Part shown: positions 5,840 to 32,000 of the stretch, in pieces | How the letters are laid out: the number at the start of each line of letters is the position of its first letter | Numbering within the stretch: the stretch's first letter is position 1 | Source of the DNA: Candidatus Electrothrix sp. GW3-4 | GTDB lineage: Bacteria > Desulfobacterota > Desulfobulbia > Desulfobulbales > Desulfobulbaceae | DNA: 32,000 bases | Direction: 5' to 3' | Assembly: GCF_037902255.1 (NCBI RefSeq) | Contig: NZ_CP147990.1 | Coordinates: forward strand, 3,420,001 to 3,452,000 | Program-made: the position numbers and the translations under genes | Notes under the pieces: model-generated | Told to the model about the DNA's origin: nothing | Databases searched by the model: none | What the model saw: the letters and a program-made list of their open reading frames with translations, nothing else

Positions 5840-8212
5840 TCATCCCCCTTTGAGCTCCTGTAAGGGCTCGGAAAAATAATAGCCCTGCAAAAAATCCACT
5901 CCCAAAGAGGTAGCTAACTCAGCCGTTTCCTTATCGTAAACAAATTCAGCAACGGTTTGGATCCCAAGTTTTTTGGCCACCGCGACAATGGTTTCTACGA
6001 TAGTTTGAGAGATCTCATCAGAGGTCAACTTCTTGAGAATCGACCCGTCTATCTTCAAATAATCCACCTGAAGCTTCATGAGGCGCTCATAGTTTGAATG
6101 CCCGCTTCCAAAATCATCAATAGCTATTTTACAGCCCATCCCTTTCATTTCTTTAATAAATTGAGCGACCTCATCGTAATTCTCAAAACCTTCTGTTTCA
6201 ACAATCTCGAGAATAATCCTTTGGGCAATAGATGATTTTCCCAGCTTTCTCTTCAGGTGTTTGACTACAGCCAAGTCAAGGATATCCTGAGTGGATAAAT
6301 TCACTGAAAAATCCATAGCAGAATCTGCAAAGGCGGAGCAGGCTCTATCAATGACTGCCATTGTTATTTTTGTATATATACGTGCTTTTTTGGCGGCATC
6401 AAGAAATTGACAAGGAGGAATAACGGTTCCGTCTTCTTCAATAATCCGAACCAAGCACTCATACTTATCAATTTCTCCTGTTTCTGCCCGGATAATAGGC
6501 TGAAAAAAGGTGACAACCCTTCCCTCATGCAGGGCATTTCGAATATCTACAGCGATAGAGTGATTCTTCTCCAACTCCAGCATGATGCTGCCACTCTCTT
6601 TATTGACAACATACTCCTGGCGATTCTTCTTGGCCTGTTTTAAGGCGATATCAGCCTCAAGAAGACCGTTCTTTTCCACGTTCCAGGCAATACCGCAGGT
6701 CACATGAACAGCTATCTCGCTATCATTGACATAAAAAGGTCTCCGCGTAATGGAATCATTGAGCTGTTCCACAGTCGCCTCAACTTCAGGCAACGGCCAT
6801 TTTTCATTTACCAGTAAGGCCGTCTGATCGCCCGGCAGCTTATACAGTTTACATGGTTTGTCTGTGCATTCCTGTTGCAAACGATGAACAACCTCAACAA
6901 GAATACTGTCACCGGTTTCTATCCCAAAATAATCATTAATATCAGCAAATGCGTGGATATCAAAGAGGATAACGGTTGTCAGCTCCTGTTTACTGAGATC
7001 CATCAGCATTTGGTAACGATTGGGCAGGCCTGTCAGATTATCTGTTGTCAACAGGGCTTGCATCTCTTGTCGATTCTCAACAAGTTCTGTAACATCGGCT
7101 CTGGCAGCGATGTACTCTACAATTTGTCCCGTATTATCCAAAATCGGGCAAACGGTCGTCTGTGCCCAACAATGGCTTCCGTCTTTCTTCCGATTTTTCA
7201 GCAGCCCCTGCCAAATTCTCTTGGCCTGAATATTTTTCCACAAATCAAGGAAGACGTAATCATCCATATCAGAATGCTGCAAAAACGAATGCGGTCTGCC
7301 AATAAGCTCACTCGGCTCATAGCCGAAGACTTGGCACATCTTATCATTCACATAGGTAATATTGCCTTCCAGGTCTCCTTTGGAAACAATAAGACTTGCA
7401 TCAAGGACCTTTGAATATTCCCGCAGCAGATTGACCTGTTCCTGGAGCTCACTCGTTTGATTCTGCACGGTTTTTTCCAATTCATGTGTGTATTGAGCAT
7501 CCTGTAGTTTCAACTTGCGGATCAAAAAAAAGATAACTATCAGAAAAAGAATGCTTCCGGCAAGGGTGACAAGGGTCGTTTTGATAAAAAAGAGACTTAT
7601 CAACTCATTCCTGATATTGGCCTTTTTCATCTTAATACTAATGACTCCACGTAATTCGCCTTCCTTGTAATCAAGGGCTGTGGAGTACTTCTGCGCAACG
7701 CCTGGGAGCACCTCATCTCTGGAGCCATGACATTGCAGGCACATCTTTTTTATATAAAATGGCGAAGCATAAAAATAAAACTGGTCTTCCCCAGAGGACA
7801 CCTGTTCAAAGTATTCCCGCTCTGTGCCATTTTCTCGAAAAAACTGTATGGCCTCCTGCTCAACATCGTCTGCCTTATTCTTCAGATTTCTCGGTCTATC
7901 AGTGACAGCATTAACTGTGACCCTATCCCCTGTAACCCTCTTAAACTCTTCTGAAATCCTTGAAATAGCCATAACTGGAAGAAGATGCATATTGCCTTCA
8001 TCCAGTGCAATATGATTTTCAACAAAGGCCTGCTGATAAACGGAACGGTACGCCTCAATAAAATTTCTCAGAACCTTAGAGTCTTCGCGATAAATCTTTT
8101 TCTCCAACAGGGAAAGGTTCCTATACTCGTCAACCATTTTCAGCGCGATAAAAATACAGAAAAATGTAACAATACATACAAACAGGCTATTTTCTTTTAT
8201 CAGCTTTATCAT
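5840..8212 (-). CDS. Membrane sensor c-di-GMP phosphodiesterase: DUF3365/Tll0287-like c-type haem domain - TM - PAS - degenerate GGDEF - EAL
   Basis: CLQCH (CxxCH, nt 7727-7741) sits in a DUF3365-like periplasmic domain (YKEGELRGVISIKM), followed by a TM segment (LVTLAGSILFLIVIFFLI). The PAS domain shows GNITYVNDKMCQVFGYEPSELIGRPHSFL. The GGDEF domain shows DNLTGLPNRY, but its signature is replaced by PGDQT. The EAL domain looks intact: ECLVR, NLS, EIVETE, DDFGSGHSN, KIDGS, QGYYFSEP. Confidence 0.9.
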   Translation of the reverse strand: MIKLIKENSLFVCIVTFFCIFIALKMVDEYRNLSLLEKKIYREDSKVLRNFIEAYRSVYQQAFVENHIALDEGNMHLLPVMAISRISEEFKRVTGDRVTVNAVTDRPRNLKNKADDVEQEAIQFFRENGTEREYFEQVSSGEDQFYFYASPFYIKKMCLQCHGSRDEVLPGVAQKYSTALDYKEGELRGVISIKMKKANIRNELISLFFIKTTLVTLAGSILFLIVIFFLIRKLKLQDAQYTHELEKTVQNQTSELQEQVNLLREYSKVLDASLIVSKGDLEGNITYVNDKMCQVFGYEPSELIGRPHSFLQHSDMDDYVFLDLWKNIQAKRIWQGLLKNRKKDGSHCWAQTTVCPILDNTGQIVEYIAARADVTELVENRQEMQALLTTDNLTGLPNRYQMLMDLSKQELTTVILFDIHAFADINDYFGIETGDSILVEVVHRLQQECTDKPCKLYKLPGDQTALLVNEKWPLPEVEATVEQLNDSITRRPFYVNDSEIAVHVTCGIAWNVEKNGLLEADIALKQAKKNRQEYVVNKESGSIMLELEKNHSIAVDIRNALHEGRVVTFFQPIIRAETGEIDKYECLVRIIEEDGTVIPPCQFLDAAKKARIYTKITMAVIDRACSAFADSAMDFSVNLSTQDILDLAVVKHLKRKLGKSSIAQRIILEIVETEGFENYDEVAQFIKEMKGMGCKIAIDDFGSGHSNYERLMKLQVDYLKIDGSILKKLTSDEISQTIVETIVAVAKKLGIQTVAEFVYDKETAELATSLGVDFLQGYYFSEPLQELKGG

Positions 8213-22476: not shown

Positions 22477-23289
22477 ATGAACAATATCTTAAACAAAAAT
22501 TCTCTTATCGGAGCACTGATCATCCTTTTACTGTTGACCTCTTGGTGGGGGCAGAGCCAAACCGGCGCCAACAAGCAGCTTAGAAAAGACAAAGAGGCTG
22601 CTGAGGCGCTGTTGGCTACAGAAGAAGCAAAGGCGGCCAATACTCGTCAAGCATTACAGGAAAAAACCGCAGCGCTGAGCAATGCTGAAGAAAAATTGAA
22701 CAAGAAAGAGCAGAACATTCAACGCCTCGGAAAAGAGCTTTCTACCCAAAAAGCCGCGCTGGCTACCTTTGAGAAAGAAGAGAAAATCCTTCTTAAAAAA
22801 ATTAAAGAGCTGGATTTTTCATTAAATAAAGCAAGGACTCAACAGGAACAGGCAGGCTCTCAGCAGCAAAATCTGCAAGAGTTTCCTAACAGCCATCAGG
22901 AGACTCTGGTAAAATTAGAAAAAGCTCAGGCCCAAGTCGCCCAGCTCGAAAAAGAACAGGCAGAGCTCAAAACAGAGACAGAGGCCCGGATTGCCCAGCT
23001 CCAGAAAAAAGAGGGTGAAGCAGCAACAGAGGTTGAATCTCTTAGCGCTCAAGTCATTGGCTTTGAAAAGGTTGTTGAGGAAAGAAATGCAGCACTTGCA
23101 GAGCTCGGAAGCGAGTTGGATGCCTGCAAGGTCAATACAAAGGTCCTGCTCTCCAAAATTTCAGAACAGGAAAACGCACAGCAGGGTATGGAAGAAAAAA
23201 TGCGTCTCATGGTGCAGAATCTCTCTGAAGAATCCGCGCATGAGGAAACCATTCCTGAGCAGAAAGAGCAGCCCACTGACGCGGAATAA
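22477..23289 (+). CDS. Membrane-anchored coiled-coil protein (function unknown)
   Basis: AGGAG lies upstream of the ATG. A single N-terminal TM segment (LIGALIILLLLTSWW) is followed by about 240 aa of E/K/Q/A-rich heptad-like sequence. Confidence 0.65.
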   Translation: MNNILNKNSLIGALIILLLLTSWWGQSQTGANKQLRKDKEAAEALLATEEAKAANTRQALQEKTAALSNAEEKLNKKEQNIQRLGKELSTQKAALATFEKEEKILLKKIKELDFSLNKARTQQEQAGSQQQNLQEFPNSHQETLVKLEKAQAQVAQLEKEQAELKTETEARIAQLQKKEGEAATEVESLSAQVIGFEKVVEERNAALAELGSELDACKVNTKVLLSKISEQENAQQGMEEKMRLMVQNLSEESAHEETIPEQKEQPTDAE

Positions 23290-23342: not shown

Positions 23343-23397
23343 AGGCTCAGGCTGTGCAGATAAAAATATCCTGCACAGTCTGAGCCTCTTTGTTGTT
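23343..23397 (+). terminator. Strong intrinsic terminator after the coiled-coil gene
   Basis: A 17-bp stem pairs AGGCTCAGGCTGTGCAG (23343-23359) with CTGCACAGTCTGAGCCT (23371-23387), with one G-T pair and an 11-nt loop. The tail is CTTTGTTGTT. Confidence 0.8.
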
Positions 23398-24084: not shown

Positions 24085-26550
24085 ATGGGAAAAACACTCA
24101 TCATCGCAGAGAAACCCAGCGTGGCCGCTGACATCGTCAAGGCCCTGCCTGGCAACTTCAAAAAATCCAAAACCCATTTCGAGGGTGGCGATTATATCGT
24201 CTCCTATGCGGTCGGTCATCTTGTCTCCATTGGATTCCCCGAAGAGATTGACCCAAAATTTCAAAAATGGACCTTGGACAACCTGCCCATTCTGCCGGAA
24301 GAGTTTCCCCTGAGCGTCCTGTCCAATACCAAGACCCAGTATAACGCCCTGAGTAAGTTGATTCGGCGCAGGGACGTGAATATCATTGTCAACGGCTGTG
24401 ACGCCGGTCGTGAGGGTGAACTCATCTTTAAATACATCCTCAAACACGCCTATACTCGATCTGTGGCCGGAAAATCTATCCGCAGACTCTGGCTCCAGTC
24501 CATGACCTTAGACGCCATTAGGACAGGATTACAAAATCTGCGTGAGAATGAGGAGATGCTGAGCCTTGAAGATGCCGCTCTCTGTCGATCTGAAGCGGAC
24601 TGGCTCATCGGCATCAACGCAACCCGGGCCCTGACCTGCTATAACTCGCGCCACGGTGGATTCCGTAAGACCCCCTGCGGACGGGTCCAGACCCCAACCC
24701 TGTCCCTGCTGGTCAAACGGGAAGCGGACCGGCGTGCCTTTATCCCGACCGATTATTGGGAGCTGCATGCTGATTTCCTTTGCGAAGATGCTGTCTACCA
24801 AGGGATATGGATTGACACGGAGTTTAAAAAAGACCCGGACAATCCCCATGCCAACAAAAAACGCATCTGGGAAGAAACGCAGGCGGCCGAGATCGCAAAA
24901 AAATGCCTCGCTAAAGAGGCAACTGTTGAGGAGAACCATAAAAATTCCAACCAGGCTCCTCCTCAGCTCTACGACCTCACCTCCTTGCAACGTGAAGCCA
25001 ACTCCAGGTTCGGTTTTTCCGCCAAGAACACCTTGGGTCTTGCCCAGGCCCTGTATGAGCGCCATAAGCTGATCACCTATCCCAGAACAGACAGCCGCTG
25101 CCTACCTGAAGATTACTTGCAGTCTGTTCAAGCGGTCCTGGAACGGCAGCAAGGATGGCAATACGGCACATTTGCCACAGAGGCCCTGAGCAAGGACTAT
25201 CTGCAAAAGAACCAAAAGAATAAACGGCTTTTTAATAATAAAAAGATCAGTGATCATTTTGCGATCATCCCCACCTCCGGCCTTCCCGGCACTCTGAGCG
25301 AACCGGAAATGAAGGTCTACCAGATGATCGTGCAGCGCTTCCTTGCTATTCTTTTCCCGGCAGCGGTCTTTCATAACACCCGCCGTCTTTCCATTGTAGA
25401 GCAGGAGACCTTTCTCACAGAAGGCAAGATTCTGGTGGAACCGGGCTGGAAGGCTGTGTATGGGGCAAAAGCCGGGGCCGGTGACGCAAGCACCCTTGTG
25501 GCCCTGCCCGAAGGGAAGCCCGTACTCTGCAAGGAAATAGAGCAGAAAAAGCTTGTCACCAAACCGCCAGCTCGTTTTTCCGAGGCCACCCTGCTCTCAG
25601 CTATGGAGCATTCCGGAAAGCTGGTAGATGACGAGGAACTGGCCGAGGCCATGAAGGAGCGCGGCCTGGGCACCCCGGCCACCCGGGCCGCTATTATTGA
25701 AAAGCTGCTCAATGAAAAATACGTCGTCCGGGAACAAAAAGAACTCATTCCAACGGGTAAGGCCTTTGAGCTGCTCTCTCTGCTGGAAGCGCGGGACATT
25801 GATGTCTTGGCCTCGCCGGAACTGACTGGCGAATGGGAGTACAAGCTCAATCAGATCCTGCGGGGGCAAATGACCCGGGAGCAATTCATGCGGGAGATTC
25901 GGGAGCAGACCGCCAAGATTGTCGAGCAGGTAAAAACCGGCGAGGAAGCGGTTCGCAAGGAGGCCCCCTTCTCTCCGGTTGACGGGGTAAAATTCTTTGA
26001 GAACGCAACCGCCTACCAATCAGAAGACGGCAAGCTGATGATCCGCAAAATTCTTGGGGGCAGGATCATGGAAGACGAGGAGATCGTCCGCCTCATTCAG
26101 GGAGAAACCGTCGGGCCCTATACGGACTTTCGCTCCAAAAAAGGAAAACCTTTTACCGCCTCTGTCTCCATCAAGGACTCCAAGGTCTCTTTTCAATTTG
26201 CCGACTCCACCGATGGCCTTGATATGGAGGCCATTAAACAGCAAGACCCCATCGGCATCTCACCAGTGGACGAGACGAGGGTCTTTGAGACTCCTATGGC
26301 CTATATGTCCGAATCTGCCCTGGAGGGAGATCGGAAAAAAGGCCTGCGCATAGGAAAAATTATCCTGGAACGTACCATCACTCGGGACAATATTGCCCAA
26401 CTCTTGAGCAAGGGAAAGACCGAGTTGATCAAGGGATTTATCTCCAAAAGAAAACGACCCTTTGACGCCTATCTCTGCATGGACAAGAAGGGAAAGATCA
26501 CCTTTGAATTTCCACCGAGAAAACCACGGGCAACAAAAGGGAAAAGTTGA
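24085..26550 (+). CDS. topB: DNA topoisomerase III with duplicated C-terminal repeat domain
   Basis: The Toprim start is KTLIIAEKPSVAADI. The active-site region is LYERHKLITYPRTDS. The C-terminus carries two related modules (GPYTDFRSKKGKPFTASVSIKDSKVSFQF and KGFISKRKRPFDAYLCMDKKGKITFEF). Confidence 0.92.
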   Translation: MGKTLIIAEKPSVAADIVKALPGNFKKSKTHFEGGDYIVSYAVGHLVSIGFPEEIDPKFQKWTLDNLPILPEEFPLSVLSNTKTQYNALSKLIRRRDVNIIVNGCDAGREGELIFKYILKHAYTRSVAGKSIRRLWLQSMTLDAIRTGLQNLRENEEMLSLEDAALCRSEADWLIGINATRALTCYNSRHGGFRKTPCGRVQTPTLSLLVKREADRRAFIPTDYWELHADFLCEDAVYQGIWIDTEFKKDPDNPHANKKRIWEETQAAEIAKKCLAKEATVEENHKNSNQAPPQLYDLTSLQREANSRFGFSAKNTLGLAQALYERHKLITYPRTDSRCLPEDYLQSVQAVLERQQGWQYGTFATEALSKDYLQKNQKNKRLFNNKKISDHFAIIPTSGLPGTLSEPEMKVYQMIVQRFLAILFPAAVFHNTRRLSIVEQETFLTEGKILVEPGWKAVYGAKAGAGDASTLVALPEGKPVLCKEIEQKKLVTKPPARFSEATLLSAMEHSGKLVDDEELAEAMKERGLGTPATRAAIIEKLLNEKYVVREQKELIPTGKAFELLSLLEARDIDVLASPELTGEWEYKLNQILRGQMTREQFMREIREQTAKIVEQVKTGEEAVRKEAPFSPVDGVKFFENATAYQSEDGKLMIRKILGGRIMEDEEIVRLIQGETVGPYTDFRSKKGKPFTASVSIKDSKVSFQFADSTDGLDMEAIKQQDPIGISPVDETRVFETPMAYMSESALEGDRKKGLRIGKIILERTITRDNIAQLLSKGKTELIKGFISKRKRPFDAYLCMDKKGKITFEFPPRKPRATKGKS

Positions 26551-26595
26551 GTCCTCCTGCCAGAGGCCTCCTTTTAACCTCACAAACTTATTTTT

Positions 26596-26679
26596 ACATG
26601 AAAGTAGCGGGTGAGGCATTCAAGTCGCTCGACCAACTTTCATTTTTTATTGTCCCAGCCCGCTGGGATGGAAGTTTAT
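26596..26679 (+). repeat. Copy 1 of an ~85-nt two-hairpin repeat element
   Basis: The outer stem pairs ATGAAAGT (26598-26605) with ACTTTCAT (26636-26643) and encloses an inner hairpin that begins in GCGGGTGA. TTTTTTATTGTCCC follows. The second hairpin is TCCCAG-cccg-CTGGGA (26653-26668), and the tail is TGGAAGTTTATA. Confidence 0.75.
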
Positions 26680-26762
26680 ATGAAAGTGTCGGGTGATTCC
26701 GTCACCTGACCATTTTTCATCCTTTGTTGTCCCGACCGCTGGGCCGGGATAGGAGTTATATC
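26680..26762 (+). repeat. Copy 2 of the two-hairpin repeat element (head-to-tail with copy 1; its tail supplies the rsfS Shine-Dalgarno)
   Basis: The outer stem pairs ATGAAA (26680-26685) with TTTCAT (26715-26720). The inner hairpin is CGGGTGA-ttccg-TCACCTG (26690-26708). CCTTTGTTGTCCC follows. The second hairpin spans 26730-26749, and the tail is TAGGAGTTATAT. The period relative to copy 1 is 82 nt. Confidence 0.75.
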
Positions 26763-26767
26763 ATAAG

Positions 26768-27169
26768 ATGCGACAGCTGAAAAAAAAACACCGCGAACGG
26801 ACCCCGCTGGAACTGGCCGAAATCTGCGCCCGCACGGCCCTGGACACTAAGGCAGAAGACCTGATTATCCTGGACGTTCACACCACCTCCTCCTTTACTG
26901 ATTATTTCGTCATTATGAGTGGACGATCCAGCCGCCATGTTCAGGGACTGGCCGAGGCCATTGAGGAAGAACTGCGCTCTAAACGGGTAACCAGTACACA
27001 CTCAGAGGGATTAAAAGAGGGCATGTGGGTGCTCCTGGATTTCGGTGATATCGTGGCCCATATCTTCTATAAGGATCAACGGGAGTTTTATGATCTGGAA
27101 GGGCTCTGGCATGATGCCCCTCGAGTGGCTCTGAAAGAACTGGGTATTGAGGAACAGGAGGAAGGGTGA
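26768..27169 (+). CDS. rsfS: Ribosome silencing factor RsfS (Iojap family)
   Basis: Typical RsfS core: AEDLIILDV...[26 protein letters not shown]...[28 protein letters not shown]. Confidence 0.9.
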
Positions 27170-29988: not shown

Positions 29989-30058
29989 ATAATCGACACT
30001 TCTTATGCTCCAATATGCCGATAAATCAGTTCGGCAGCTAAACTGGAGTGTCGATTAT
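29989..30058 (+). promoter_or_regulatory. Nested inverted repeat in the spacer between the 357-aa gene and the NERD gene
   Basis: The outer 11-bp arms are ATAATCGACAC (29989-29999) and GTGTCGATTAT (30048-30058). The inner hairpin is TGCCGA (30016-30021) / TCGGCA (30031-30036) with a 9-nt loop. Confidence 0.5.
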
Positions 30059-30074
30059 ATTTAGCCGGGTACTT

Positions 30075-30848
30075 ATGAATTTCTCGCCAACCATCTATGA
30101 AGTTTTGAAAACGCTTTGGTGGGTCATCCCAATGATGCTGTTCCTCGCCTTCCTGGGGTCTCCCAAGTTCAAAGGGATATTTGGGGAAGCCTTAGTCAAG
30201 GTTGCGGCATGGTTACGCCTTCCTGCCAAAGTCTACCATCCTATCCATAATGTGACGATACCGACCCTGGACGGCACAACGCAGATTGACCATATCTTTG
30301 TTTCTTGTTTTGGCATCTTCGTCGTAGAAACGAAGAACATGAAGGGTTGGATCTTTGGCGGAGAGAATCAAAAGCAGTGGACACAGCGAATATTCAAAAA
30401 ATCATCTCCATTTCAAAACCCACTGCACCAAAACTACAAGCATGTCAAAGCACTGGAGACCTTACTTGCTGTCCCTCCAGAAACGTTACATTCAGTGATC
30501 GTTTTTATGGGTGACAGTACGTTTAAGTCGCCCATGCCAGCCAACGTCACTCGTGGCGGTGACTATATCACATACATTAAATCCTTCCGCAACCCCGTGC
30601 TGTCGGAAGCTCAAGTGCAGAAAGCGATAGCACAGATCCAATCTGGTCGACTTACACCGTCATGGGAGACAGATCGCCAGCATGTTCACCAGCTCAAAAA
30701 TCGCGCCGATCCGAATGCGGAGAGAAAATGCCCAAAATGTGGCAAACCTATGGTATTGCGTACTGCAAAACGAGGCGCAAATGCCGGTAATCAATTCTGG
30801 GGTTGCTCCGCATATCCCAAGTGCAGGATGGTGCAAAATATCAACTGA
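30075..30848 (+). CDS. NERD (nuclease-related domain) protein with an N-terminal TM segment and a C-terminal topoisomerase-type C4 zinc ribbon
   Basis: The TM segment is LWWVIPMMLFLAFL. The NERD core is HNVTIPTLDGTTQIDHIFVSCFGIFVVETKNMKGWIFGGENQKQWTQ. The zinc ribbon is KCPKCGKPMVLRTAKRGANAGNQFWGCSAYPKCR. I prefer ATG 30075, because the ORF-track GTG 30048 lies inside the 3' arm of the inverted repeat and GGAG abuts it with no spacing. Confidence 0.8.
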   Translation: MNFSPTIYEVLKTLWWVIPMMLFLAFLGSPKFKGIFGEALVKVAAWLRLPAKVYHPIHNVTIPTLDGTTQIDHIFVSCFGIFVVETKNMKGWIFGGENQKQWTQRIFKKSSPFQNPLHQNYKHVKALETLLAVPPETLHSVIVFMGDSTFKSPMPANVTRGGDYITYIKSFRNPVLSEAQVQKAIAQIQSGRLTPSWETDRQHVHQLKNRADPNAERKCPKCGKPMVLRTAKRGANAGNQFWGCSAYPKCRMVQNIN

Positions 30849-31120
30849 CAGTCTGTTACTGTTGTCTGCCAACGCACTACGAACAGGTTGTCATTGTATT
30901 TGAGACAGGAATTATCATCCTCCATCGCATCCTCAACCACCAGATTCTCCAACAACCACATCCGACTCTATCTCAACCGCACATACAAGCTCAGAACACA
31001 ACTCACATGTACGGTCAAAACTGGACAATCTCCAGCATCACGCGCCCTCTCCCCTTTTTCTATTGACAAAGAAAAATTTCCTTCTTAATTTAAGAATTTA
31101 TTATCTCACGGTCTTTCCAA

Positions 31121-31209
31121 ACAAACTCCCATCCCGCGCCCTGGGTGCGGGACAACAAAGCATGAAAGTTGATTAACTGACTCCAAGGAGTCACCCGGCA
31201 CTTTCGTAT
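31121..31209 (-). repeat. Copy 3 of the two-hairpin repeat element, inverted relative to copies 1 and 2
   Basis: The reverse complement reads ACGAAAGTGCCGGGTGA...CTTTCATGCTTTGTTGTCCCG...CGGGATGGGAGTTTGT, and all three conserved blocks match copy 2. Read on the + strand, the stems are GAAAGT (31164-31169)/ACTTTC (31200-31205), TGACTC/GAGTCA (31178-31193) and a 9-bp hairpin at 31132-31152. Confidence 0.75.
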
Positions 31210-31337
31210 AAATACTTTTTCATCTTTACAACGCAAGTAACTGATAAGCAGGAAAACAATTCCAACATAGGTTGATAGCCTATATTTTCCCAGGTTCTAA
31301 ACGGTTGTACCTATACACCATATAGGAGGAAACTGAC

Positions 31338-32000
31338 GTGGACCCGAAAAAAAGAGTTTGGTTGTTGATTCTCATCATGTTTCTCCTGGTTATCTCGACC
31401 ACAGTAGTTTCAGTTGGCCTTCTTTATCAAACCAGTATTAAAGAACAAAAAATACGCCTTGCCGAAACAGCAAAGAGCCAGGCACGGCTGATAGAAGCTG
31501 TCGCCAACTTCAATAAGAGCTATAGTAATAATTATTCACCCGGGGCGAGAGAGGCAACTCTCGTTCAAATACGAGAGGCTCACTCCAACTATCAGGGGTT
31601 TGGCGTTACCGGAGAATTCACCCTGGCAGAAAAGAAAAACAAACAAATTATCTTTCTCTTAAGTCACCGTCATTATGATCTTGATAACCCGAAACCTGTT
31701 CCCTGTGACTCTCCTATTGCAGAACCTATGCGTCTTGCGCTCTCCGGCAAGTCTGGAGTTGTCATTGGGCTTGATTATCGAGGAGCAAAGGTCCTTGCAG
31801 CGCACGAACCTGTTGGAGTATTTGGTTTGGGAATTGTTGCAAAAATTGACCTGGCAGAAATCAGAGCACCATTTATTAAAGTGATCAATATTACTGCTAT
31901 TTTCTCTTTTTTTCTCATTACATTAGGCGTAAGTATCTTTCTTAAGTTGACAAACCCTCTCTTGCGCAACCTCAACAATACTATAGAAAAACTCCAAAAA
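31338..32000 (+). CDS. N-terminal part of a membrane sensor protein (TM - Cache-like periplasmic domain - TM - linker), running off the window
   Basis: This ORF is not in the ORF track because it has no stop codon. AGGAGG (31324-31329) lies 8 nt before GTG 31338, and the frame is open for 221 codons to nt 32000. The protein begins VDPKKRVWLLILIMFLLVISTTVVSVGLLYQ. Its periplasmic part (GLDYRGAKVLAAHEPVGVFGLGIVAKIDLAEIRAPF) is Cache-like, and the second TM is AIFSFFLITLGVSIFL. Confidence 0.75.
   Translation, partial: MDPKKRVWLLILIMFLLVISTTVVSVGLLYQTSIKEQKIRLAETAKSQARLIEAVANFNKSYSNNYSPGAREATLVQIREAHSNYQGFGVTGEFTLAEKKNKQIIFLLSHRHYDLDNPKPVPCDSPIAEPMRLALSGKSGVVIGLDYRGAKVLAAHEPVGVFGLGIVAKIDLAEIRAPFIKVINITAIFSFFLITLGVSIFLKLTNPLLRNLNNTIEKLQK

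Follow-up and report, generated by a model that had tools for sequence, protein, structure and literature searches.

We describe a short structured repeat of Candidatus Electrothrix, two units of which lie head to tail in the spacer between topB and rsfS of Candidatus Electrothrix sp. GW3-4, a marine cable bacterium. The analysed stretch of DNA, referred to below as the window, comprises 32,000 nt of contig NZ_CP147990.1. We consider it fairly probable that the spacer acquired its two units by independent insertions of a lineage-restricted, non-coding and non-autonomous mobile repeat of about 85 nt. This reading draws on the family membership of the copies, the conservation of their fold, their dispersal among unrelated genes, orthologous sites found both filled and empty, and arrays that differ in copy number.

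The repeat pair and its family

An initial annotation, made from the sequence of the window alone, had proposed a head-to-tail pair with a period of 82 nt. This is borne out, as ATGAAAGT stands at 26598 and again at 26680, and both units are recovered within the window by a profile made from the copies (E = 3e-24 and 4e-26) and by a covariance model, R2, of 86 positions and 27 base pairs. Unit 1 (c1; 26596-26676, + strand), a full copy, scores 72.7 bits with R2 (E = 5e-14), and unit 2 (c2; 26678-26757, + strand) scores 64.8 bits. Depending on the alignment, the two units are 66-79% identical, the higher value being the column identity over about 85 nt with two indels. Tandem Repeats Finder did not report the pair in the window because the units are too divergent. 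On its 5' side the array abuts a T-run, TTATTTTT (26587-26595, + strand), which forms the left target flank. The whole spacer is 217 nt long, bounded upstream by topB (DNA topoisomerase III; 24085-26550, + strand; NF006032, 1151.7 bits) and downstream by rsfS (ribosome silencing factor; 26768-27169, + strand; TIGR00090, 114 bits), whose product in the window is 100% identical to RsfS of Candidatus Electrothrix sp. GW3-4.

Further copies, for which the initial annotation had recommended a search in this genome and its relatives, were found. A three-block DNA pattern was scanned across 185,579 species, one genome each, and its true matches came only from Electrothrix metagenome-assembled genomes (MAGs) and from the E. 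laxa chromosome. A second pattern, scanned over the JGI metagenomes, gave 19 contigs. Using nhmmer alongside R2, we identified 36 strong copies (52-106 bits) across 23 loci. Loci fetched later contributed more copies (L027, L028 and L036) as well as relics (L029 and L035), which brings the total to about 40 copies, and all of those that can be placed taxonomically belong to Electrothrix. The NadA encoded on metagenome contig L020 has 90% identity to a protein of Electrothrix, and other metagenome contigs are syntenic with Electrothrix loci. The window itself holds a third full copy, c3 (31124-31209, - strand; nhmmer E = 6e-28; R2 84.6 bits; folded), which was found by the pattern search and had been missed in the initial annotation. 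Within one metagenome, dispersed non-orthologous copies are 92-94% identical, compared with 66% (in one alignment) for c1 and c2, which points to recent spread.

Some pattern matches were discarded. The profile failed to recognise those in Cytophagales (L002) and Methanoregulaceae (L006), which are attributed to chance. Two others, at L019 (4047-4164, - strand) and L032 (1072-1174, + strand), reach only 20-25 bits and were judged to be chance look-alikes; they lie on contigs of 157 kb and 171 kb, one of which is in IMG/VR, and the L019 match falls within an open reading frame (ORF) of 251 amino acids (aa). In the 20-kb regions examined of Electronema aureum and Electrothrix sp. YB6, the element was not found.

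The family is new to Rfam and to the searchable literature, while its class, the small structured repeats of bacteria, is already familiar. At the gathering score, Rfam 15 gave no match in the window and six other loci; at E <= 10, positions 26400-26900 returned only noise (<= 14 bits), and the array in L023 gave a single 21-bit noise match to U4atac. The element resembles Desulfotalea-1 and similar lineage-restricted Rfam motifs in being structured, lineage-restricted and present in relatives within the Desulfobulbaceae. It differs from them in lacking a match in Rfam 15, either to Desulfotalea-1, membership of which the initial annotation had raised, or to any other family. A literature search on small RNAs (sRNAs), repeats, and intergenic or insertion sequence (IS) elements of cable bacteria and Electrothrix found nothing relevant, and we know of no published work on non-coding repeats or sRNAs of these organisms. 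Cable bacteria are uncultured and genetically intractable, and a lineage-specific structured repeat can serve as a marker in strain typing and help to spot where assemblies of Electrothrix MAGs are broken.

Fold and genomic setting

The unit is about 85 nt long (80-95 nt), contains three helices and is non-coding. The minimum free energy (MFE) fold of each unit reproduces the architecture outlined in the initial annotation, i.e. two hairpins with an outer stem, a linker and a tail (z-scores: -2.4 for unit 1 and -4.3 for unit 2). The outer stem P1 (AUGAAAGU/ACUUUCAU) encloses a hairpin, P2, which starts at CGGGUGA. A U-rich linker (UUUGUUGU or UUUAUUGU) then leads to P3, a GC-rich hairpin of the form UCCC...GGGA, and the tail after P3 reads GGGAU(G/A)GRAGUU. 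In unit 1, P1 is formed by 26598-26605/26636-26643, P2 by 26608-26614/26625-26631 and P3 by 26652-26658/26663-26669, with the linker UUUUUUAUUGU. In unit 2, the corresponding stems are 26680-26686/26714-26720 (P1), 26688-26697/26701-26710 (P2) and 26730-26737/26742-26749 (P3 core), and the tail is GGGAUAGGAGUU. The inner hairpins thus begin at CGGGTGA, as had been noted, but the pairing originally given for unit 1 is better replaced by CGGGUGA/UCGCUCG.

A coding function was considered and rejected. The frame of the small ORF that opens the unit (ATG AAA GT...) is broken by indels, in unit 2 it meets a stop after nine codons, and no Shine-Dalgarno (SD) sequence precedes it. No tRNA or tmRNA was found either. 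As its first codon is ATG and the frame may remain open over 30-50 codons, the unit is joined by mechanical ORF calling to genes downstream, and familiarity with the repeat guards against such mis-annotation, since it has been read into nadA and other ORFs. Examples are the nadA fused to a unit in L020 (435-1730) and a spurious 49-aa ORF listed in the window at 26547-26696.

In the model-based alignment, which was fitted to the model and for this reason leans to structure, 91.1% of the pair cells form standard pairs, compared with 41-60% after a shift of the 3' partners by 1-3 columns. Two-sided changes were counted in 39 cells against 14 +/- 4.8 in shuffles, and none of the 500 shuffles reached 39. 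In P3, pair 93-107 occurs as GC (12), UA (12), AU (5) and CG (1), and pair 94-106 also covaries clearly; compensatory P3 variants are visible in the raw sequences too. Pair 26-47 of P2 occurs as CG (12), UA (10) and UG (6). P1 is conserved in sequence and varies through G.U pairs only. Stems that covary beside conserved blocks indicate that the structure of the element is under selection, in agreement with the initial annotation.

G.U pairs outnumber A.C pairs (96 versus 44 overall, and 90 versus 28 in P1 and P2 together), therefore the fold is specific to the forward strand of the element, in single-stranded form, i.e. RNA or top-strand DNA. It belongs to a single strand and not to a symmetric duplex site. 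This bears on the explanation that the element is a double-stranded DNA site for a host protein (nucleoid-associated protein, recombinase or replication factor), in the manner of repetitive extragenic palindromes (REPs) and bacterial interspersed mosaic elements (BIMEs) that bind IHF or gyrase. The strongly conserved linear blocks, the intergenic positions and the arrays would all suit such a site. However, covarying stems and the excess of G.U over A.C indicate a folded single strand, inspection revealed no IHF-like consensus and no associated protein was identified, and we regard this explanation as very improbable.

The conserved blocks flanking P3, drawn above as unpaired, can themselves be paired by wobble in 92.7% of cells. 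This extension of P3 is treated as a possibility because no two-sided covariation was found in it and shuffles score alike.

All copies are intergenic and both orientations occur: relative to its neighbours, the element is sense at about 13 loci and antisense at about 9. The neighbours are unrelated housekeeping genes (ABC permease, CbiQ/DUF4198, nadA, hisH, histidine kinases and acyltransferase). Several copies occupy spacers of 9-50 nt, too short to hold a promoter; in L009, for instance, the upstream gene ends at 6720, the element extends over 6719-6807 and the next gene starts from 6816. Among the 38 copies tabulated, a T-run precedes ATATGAAAG in nearly all, and in most the right flank begins with ATW after ...GTT. 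Arrays are all head-to-tail and their units abut directly, while opposite orientations are met within 4.4 kb in the window, within 1 kb in L007 and at one and the same spacer (L020 versus L036). A riboswitch or 5'-leader was rejected because of the antisense copies and the unrelated neighbouring genes. Beside the element copy in L018 lies an ORF (465-797, - strand) of tandem CCxDPHFCYHARI-like peptide repeats, which may represent tandemly repeated DNA rather than a gene.

The setting also bears on whether the copies are multi-copy genes for trans-acting sRNAs, comparable to Qrr, PrrF or RsmX/Y/Z, in which the unpaired blocks UUUGUUGU and GGGAUGGRAG would act as seed or protein-binding sites. 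A conserved structure with conserved single-stranded blocks would be expected of such genes, tandem and dispersed copies in either orientation to their neighbours would be compatible with them, as would the seemingly low copy number in some genomes, and the GGA-containing tails are reminiscent of CsrA/RsmA-binding sites. On the other hand, nothing beyond the T-run and ATAT is conserved in the 25-nt left flanks, in which no -35/-10 pair was seen, and consensus scans found no promoter-like site upstream of the copies in the window. Units that abut in arrays have no space between them for promoters, the distance from several copies to neighbouring ORFs is 9-50 nt, no canonical terminator follows P3, and clean insertion polymorphisms and decayed half-copies are atypical of sRNA genes. 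We consider this explanation quite improbable, and the discrete small RNA suggested in the initial annotation is not upheld, given the lack of a conserved promoter before the copies and the short spacers.

Filled and empty sites and the history of the topB-rsfS pair

Four orthologous sites are polymorphic for the element. In L007 and L017, the spacer between genes encoding proteins of 220 aa and about 460 aa contains no copy (AAATTTTCAT|TAAAAAAAA); one is present there in E. laxa L004 and also in L022 (AAATTTTTAT ATGAAAG...GGGTGTT ATTAAAAAAA). The insertion, between a T-run and AT, is clean and without evident duplication. The comparison fits entry between TTTT(Y) and ATT without duplication; a 2-4-bp duplication of AT or TTAT would look alike, since the element reads TT|AT at either end. 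The csd-nadA spacer holds a + copy in L020 and a - copy in L036, and is empty in L035 (E. scaldis) and L037. The array downstream of a gene for a 235-aa protein contains three, two and one copies in L004, L007 and L017, respectively, with identical flanks. Finally, the topB-rsfS spacer contains two copies in GW3-4, one in L005, L027 and L028 (MFD10219, E. aarhusensis and Rat3), the right half only in E. gigas (L029), and none in YB6 (L030), where the spacer is unrelated and 63 nt long, or in Electronema (L031).

Decayed copies were recognised as well. A relic in E. scaldis (L035 8883-8939, - strand; 22.9 bits) keeps P1 and a P3-like hairpin and is devoid of P2. In the E. gigas relic (L029 9930-9992), the linker, P3 and an ATAGGAG tail remain upstream of rsfS, with P3 re-sequenced and still paired. 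A solo right half lies upstream of the copy in L020, and a truncated copy was found in L015. Among the three functions that the initial annotation had left open (terminator or insulator, small RNA, and REP-like or MITE-like repeat, MITE standing for miniature inverted-repeat transposable element), it is the last that is favoured by presence/absence polymorphism, both orientations, head-to-tail arrays and decayed relics.

The two units of the window differ in their history. Unit 2 has orthologues at L027 (9908-9990) and L028 (9910-9990), is 85% identical to the single copy in L005, and is represented in at least four Electrothrix genomes. The single copies of three other species have the same P3 sequence, the same ATAGGAG tail and the same flanks on both sides as unit 2, and in L005, L027 and L028 the single copy follows the flank AAACTTATTTTTT, as the array does in the window. 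Unit 1 is not present in the orthologous spacer of E. aarhusensis, Rat3 or MFD10219, which contains the orthologue of unit 2 only. On its left it directly adjoins the T-run flank, which is conserved, and on its right the first base of unit 2, and in its P2 variant it is similar to a copy located elsewhere in E. laxa. As unit 1 is absent from the relatives and is placed at the joint between T-run and unit 2, it is a second independent insertion and not a local duplication. Separate insertions also explain why the stems differ between the units yet stay paired. The initial annotation had likewise argued against a recent duplication, and the divergence of the units, the orthologues of unit 2 and the separate insertion of unit 1 all speak for that view. 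Comparison of the orthologous spacers thus shows unit 2 to be the old resident and unit 1 the later arrival, specific to the GW3-4 lineage.

The older unit has been put to use. Its tail contains the rsfS SD sequence, AGGAG (26751-26755, + strand), which stands 12 nt ahead of the ATG at 26768, as the initial annotation had observed. This tail is the sole SD-like sequence before rsfS, and the ATAGGAG tail variant is confined to the rsfS-proximal copies. The tail was co-opted as the ribosome-binding site of rsfS, which makes the locus a clean example of a mobile repeat giving such a site to a conserved gene.

This raises the question of a cis-acting RNA module in mRNAs, which could serve as a 3'-end or processing barrier, as a weak terminator or insulator (P1/P2 with the U-rich linker), or as a 5' hairpin with an SD sequence, and which could have spread as a repeat yet be kept for its function. 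The structure is kept in the vertically inherited rsfS-proximal orthologues, where P2 reads GGUGA/UCACC in GW3-4, GGGUGA/UCAUCC in MFD10219 and GGAUGA/UCAUCC in E. aarhusensis and Rat3, the changes proceeding via G.U intermediates. In E. gigas the retained right half, with its different but paired P3, stands directly before the rsfS SD sequence. The tail of unit 2 supplies this sequence in GW3-4, 12 nt before the start codon, and the excess of G.U pairs on the forward strand suits RNA. The SD sequence of unit 2 pairs, in its MFE fold, with UU.UU of the linker, and the P3 extension, if formed, would occlude it. Moreover, a consensus terminator scan gave two weak matches, at P2 of unit 2 (followed by CATTTTTCAT) and at P3 of unit 1 (followed by AAGTTTATAT); the same scan flagged nothing at c3.

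Against a cis-acting RNA as the general explanation, about 40% of the loci are antisense to both neighbours, where no such role is available, and other downstream genes have an SD sequence of their own after the element. The base of P1 is AU-rich and P3 is followed by a tail other than a U-run. In the P3 extension, two-sided covariation is absent and shuffles score alike, and YB6 and Electronema express rsfS without the element. As an account of the whole family, a cis-acting RNA module therefore seems rather unlikely to us. For unit 2, a host-level RNA role is, in part, likely.

The linker of the element and the tail of a hairpin elsewhere in the window share TTTGTTGT. This hairpin (23343-23397, + strand), downstream of the gene at 22477-23289, is long and near-perfect (MFE -37.5 kcal/mol, z = -6.4) and is followed by UCUUUGUUGUU; it is a plausible intrinsic terminator. 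The connection that the initial annotation had drawn from the shared sequence is not supported, as other TTTGTTGT sites in the window are not tied to hairpins, and the match looks like a coincidence.

Proposed mobility, known elements and the surroundings of c3

The anatomy of the unit can be written as (T-run)|AUAUGAAAG-P2 hairpin-CUUUCAU-GUUUUGUUG-P3 hairpin-UGGRRGUU|AU. Terminal inverted repeats were not found: the 5' end, ATATGAAAG, is not complementary to the 3' end, GGRAGTT, and all inverted repeats are internal stems. A different hairpin lies near each end, with the foot of P3 10 nt from the 3' end. In tandem arrays, the junction GGRAGTT|ATATGAAAG corresponds to the joined ends of one unit.

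From these features we infer that the element would insert between a T-run and AT, in either orientation and with no visible target duplication. Both junctions would recreate TT|AT, so that a second copy could land at or next to a resident one and head-to-tail arrays would arise. The intermediate may be circular or have its ends joined at T-run|AT; alternatively, insertion may take place 3' of a retained target, as for IS200/IS605. The covariation of the stems would follow if the element is read as a folded single strand. Its reader would be a strand-specific enzyme acting on single-stranded DNA, most plausibly a transposase of the HUH/Y1 type such as those of REPs and of IS200/IS605 PATEs, or else the fold would be read as RNA in flanking transcripts. 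A mobile non-autonomous structured repeat of the REP/PATE/MITE kind (PATE, palindrome-associated transposable element) is in our judgement the likelier nature of the element, while a Y1/HUH driver in particular seems rather unlikely to us. The element offers a test case for the movement of small hairpin elements that have no inverted repeats, and if its mobiliser is an HUH transposase with a TT|AT target, the REP/PATE paradigm would reach the Desulfobulbaceae.

Two kinds of Y1 transposase gene were noticed at the loci collected. L011 (156-700) and L034 (1135-1679) carry an IS200-like element of about 545 bp, which encodes a 144-aa Y1 transposase (PF01797, E = 1e-39). It is flanked by repeated GACTTT(C)AGTC mini-hairpins, has the left boundary TTTATTGT in both loci, and has a 92% identical copy in Electrothrix sp. 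YB6. A second, different Y1_Tnp gene (151 aa) lies beside nadA in a relative (L037 11653-12108), and is followed by the hairpins CTTGGGGTGTTACCCCAAG and ACCCCTTCGGGGT plus ATGAAGATT, which are vaguely P3-like and tail-like.

Several points weigh against a mobile repeat. Neither a cognate transposase nor a full-length parent element was found in the approximately 340 kb searched, and no left half (ATATGAAAG..P2..CUUUCAU) and right half (UUUGUUGUCCC..P3..GGRAGUU) flanking a cargo were present there. The Y1 transposase of L011 was rejected as the cognate enzyme, as the ends of its IS differ from those of the element, and profiles of the half-elements gave no significant match in the Y1 region of L037. 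Copy numbers seem low in several genomes, with one exact pattern match in the 4.07-Mb chromosome of E. laxa and five 20-kb regions without extra copies. The boundaries are defined at base level from one insertion site only, and the growth of arrays could equally come from unequal recombination. The lean of the alignment towards structure, mentioned above, counts here as well. In addition, the hairpins retained in vertically inherited orthologues hint at a host-level RNA function and not at purely selfish DNA.

Among known systems, PATEs are non-autonomous derivatives of IS200/IS605-family IS, mobilised by the Y1 HUH transposase TnpA. The element resembles them in having no terminal inverted repeats, a hairpin near each end and a strand-specific fold. 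It may also resemble them in inserting beside a short specific sequence without evident duplication, with which the single base-resolved site and the T-run in nearly all left flanks are consistent. Y1 transposase genes do occur in Electrothrix contigs. In IS608, cleavage takes place 19 nt 5' of the left hairpin and 10 nt 3' of the right one, and insertion occurs 3' of TTAC with no duplication (PMC3201880); the right end of the element is similar, with about 10 nt between the foot of its right hairpin and the 3' end. Unlike in PATEs, the left and right hairpins of the element are dissimilar, and no parent IS with these ends was found. Another difference concerns orientation: IS200/IS605 insertions largely follow the lagging-strand template (PMC5027513), whereas copies of the element a few kb apart face opposite ways, albeit in a small sample.

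With REPs and BIMEs (REPINs), the element has in common that it is short, structured, intergenic, clustered, lineage-specific and strand-asymmetric, with compensatory changes in its stems. REPs are single palindromes of 20-40 nt with a conserved 5' tetranucleotide, usually clustered as inverted pairs. The element, in contrast, is about 85 nt long, has two different hairpins and an outer stem, and forms head-to-tail arrays. A tblastn search with a sequence of the E. coli REP-associated tyrosine transposase (RAYT, TnpA-REP) detected nothing in the loci searched.

Classical MITEs are defined by terminal inverted repeats and target-site duplication; the element has no such repeats, and no evident duplication was seen, apart from the 2-4-bp AT or TTAT that its ends could mask. 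It is nevertheless similar to them and to other structured repeats, such as Correia/NEMIS, ERIC/IRU, RUP and BOX, in being short (80-150 nt), non-coding, intergenic and inserted in either orientation. It also shares with these repeats a presumed co-transcription with neighbours, the donation of regulatory signals (here an SD sequence) and presence/absence polymorphism.

A bolder proposal would be that the element is a new kind of strand-specific mobile DNA, repeatedly domesticated as an RNA module in cable bacteria and acting in transcripts too. The dissimilar hairpins and TT|AT would then be read by an enzyme so far unconnected with repeats of this sort, or by a variant of Y1/HUH that shows no lagging-strand bias, and a P3 extension occluding the rsfS SD sequence would be one instance of the RNA role. 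We consider this proposal unlikely.

The third copy in the window, c3, is antisense to both of its neighbours, a NERD-domain gene (30048-30848, + strand) and a gene starting at 31338 (+ strand). It lies in a GW3-4-specific stretch without counterpart in E. aarhusensis or E. gigas, and because the surrounding region is rearranged, there is no empty-site comparison for it. At 30048-30848 and 30863-31338, the window encodes a NERD and Top1-type zinc-ribbon protein with weak similarity to the antiphage kinase models MADS6 and PglW, and the synteny with E. aarhusensis and E. gigas stops right after it.

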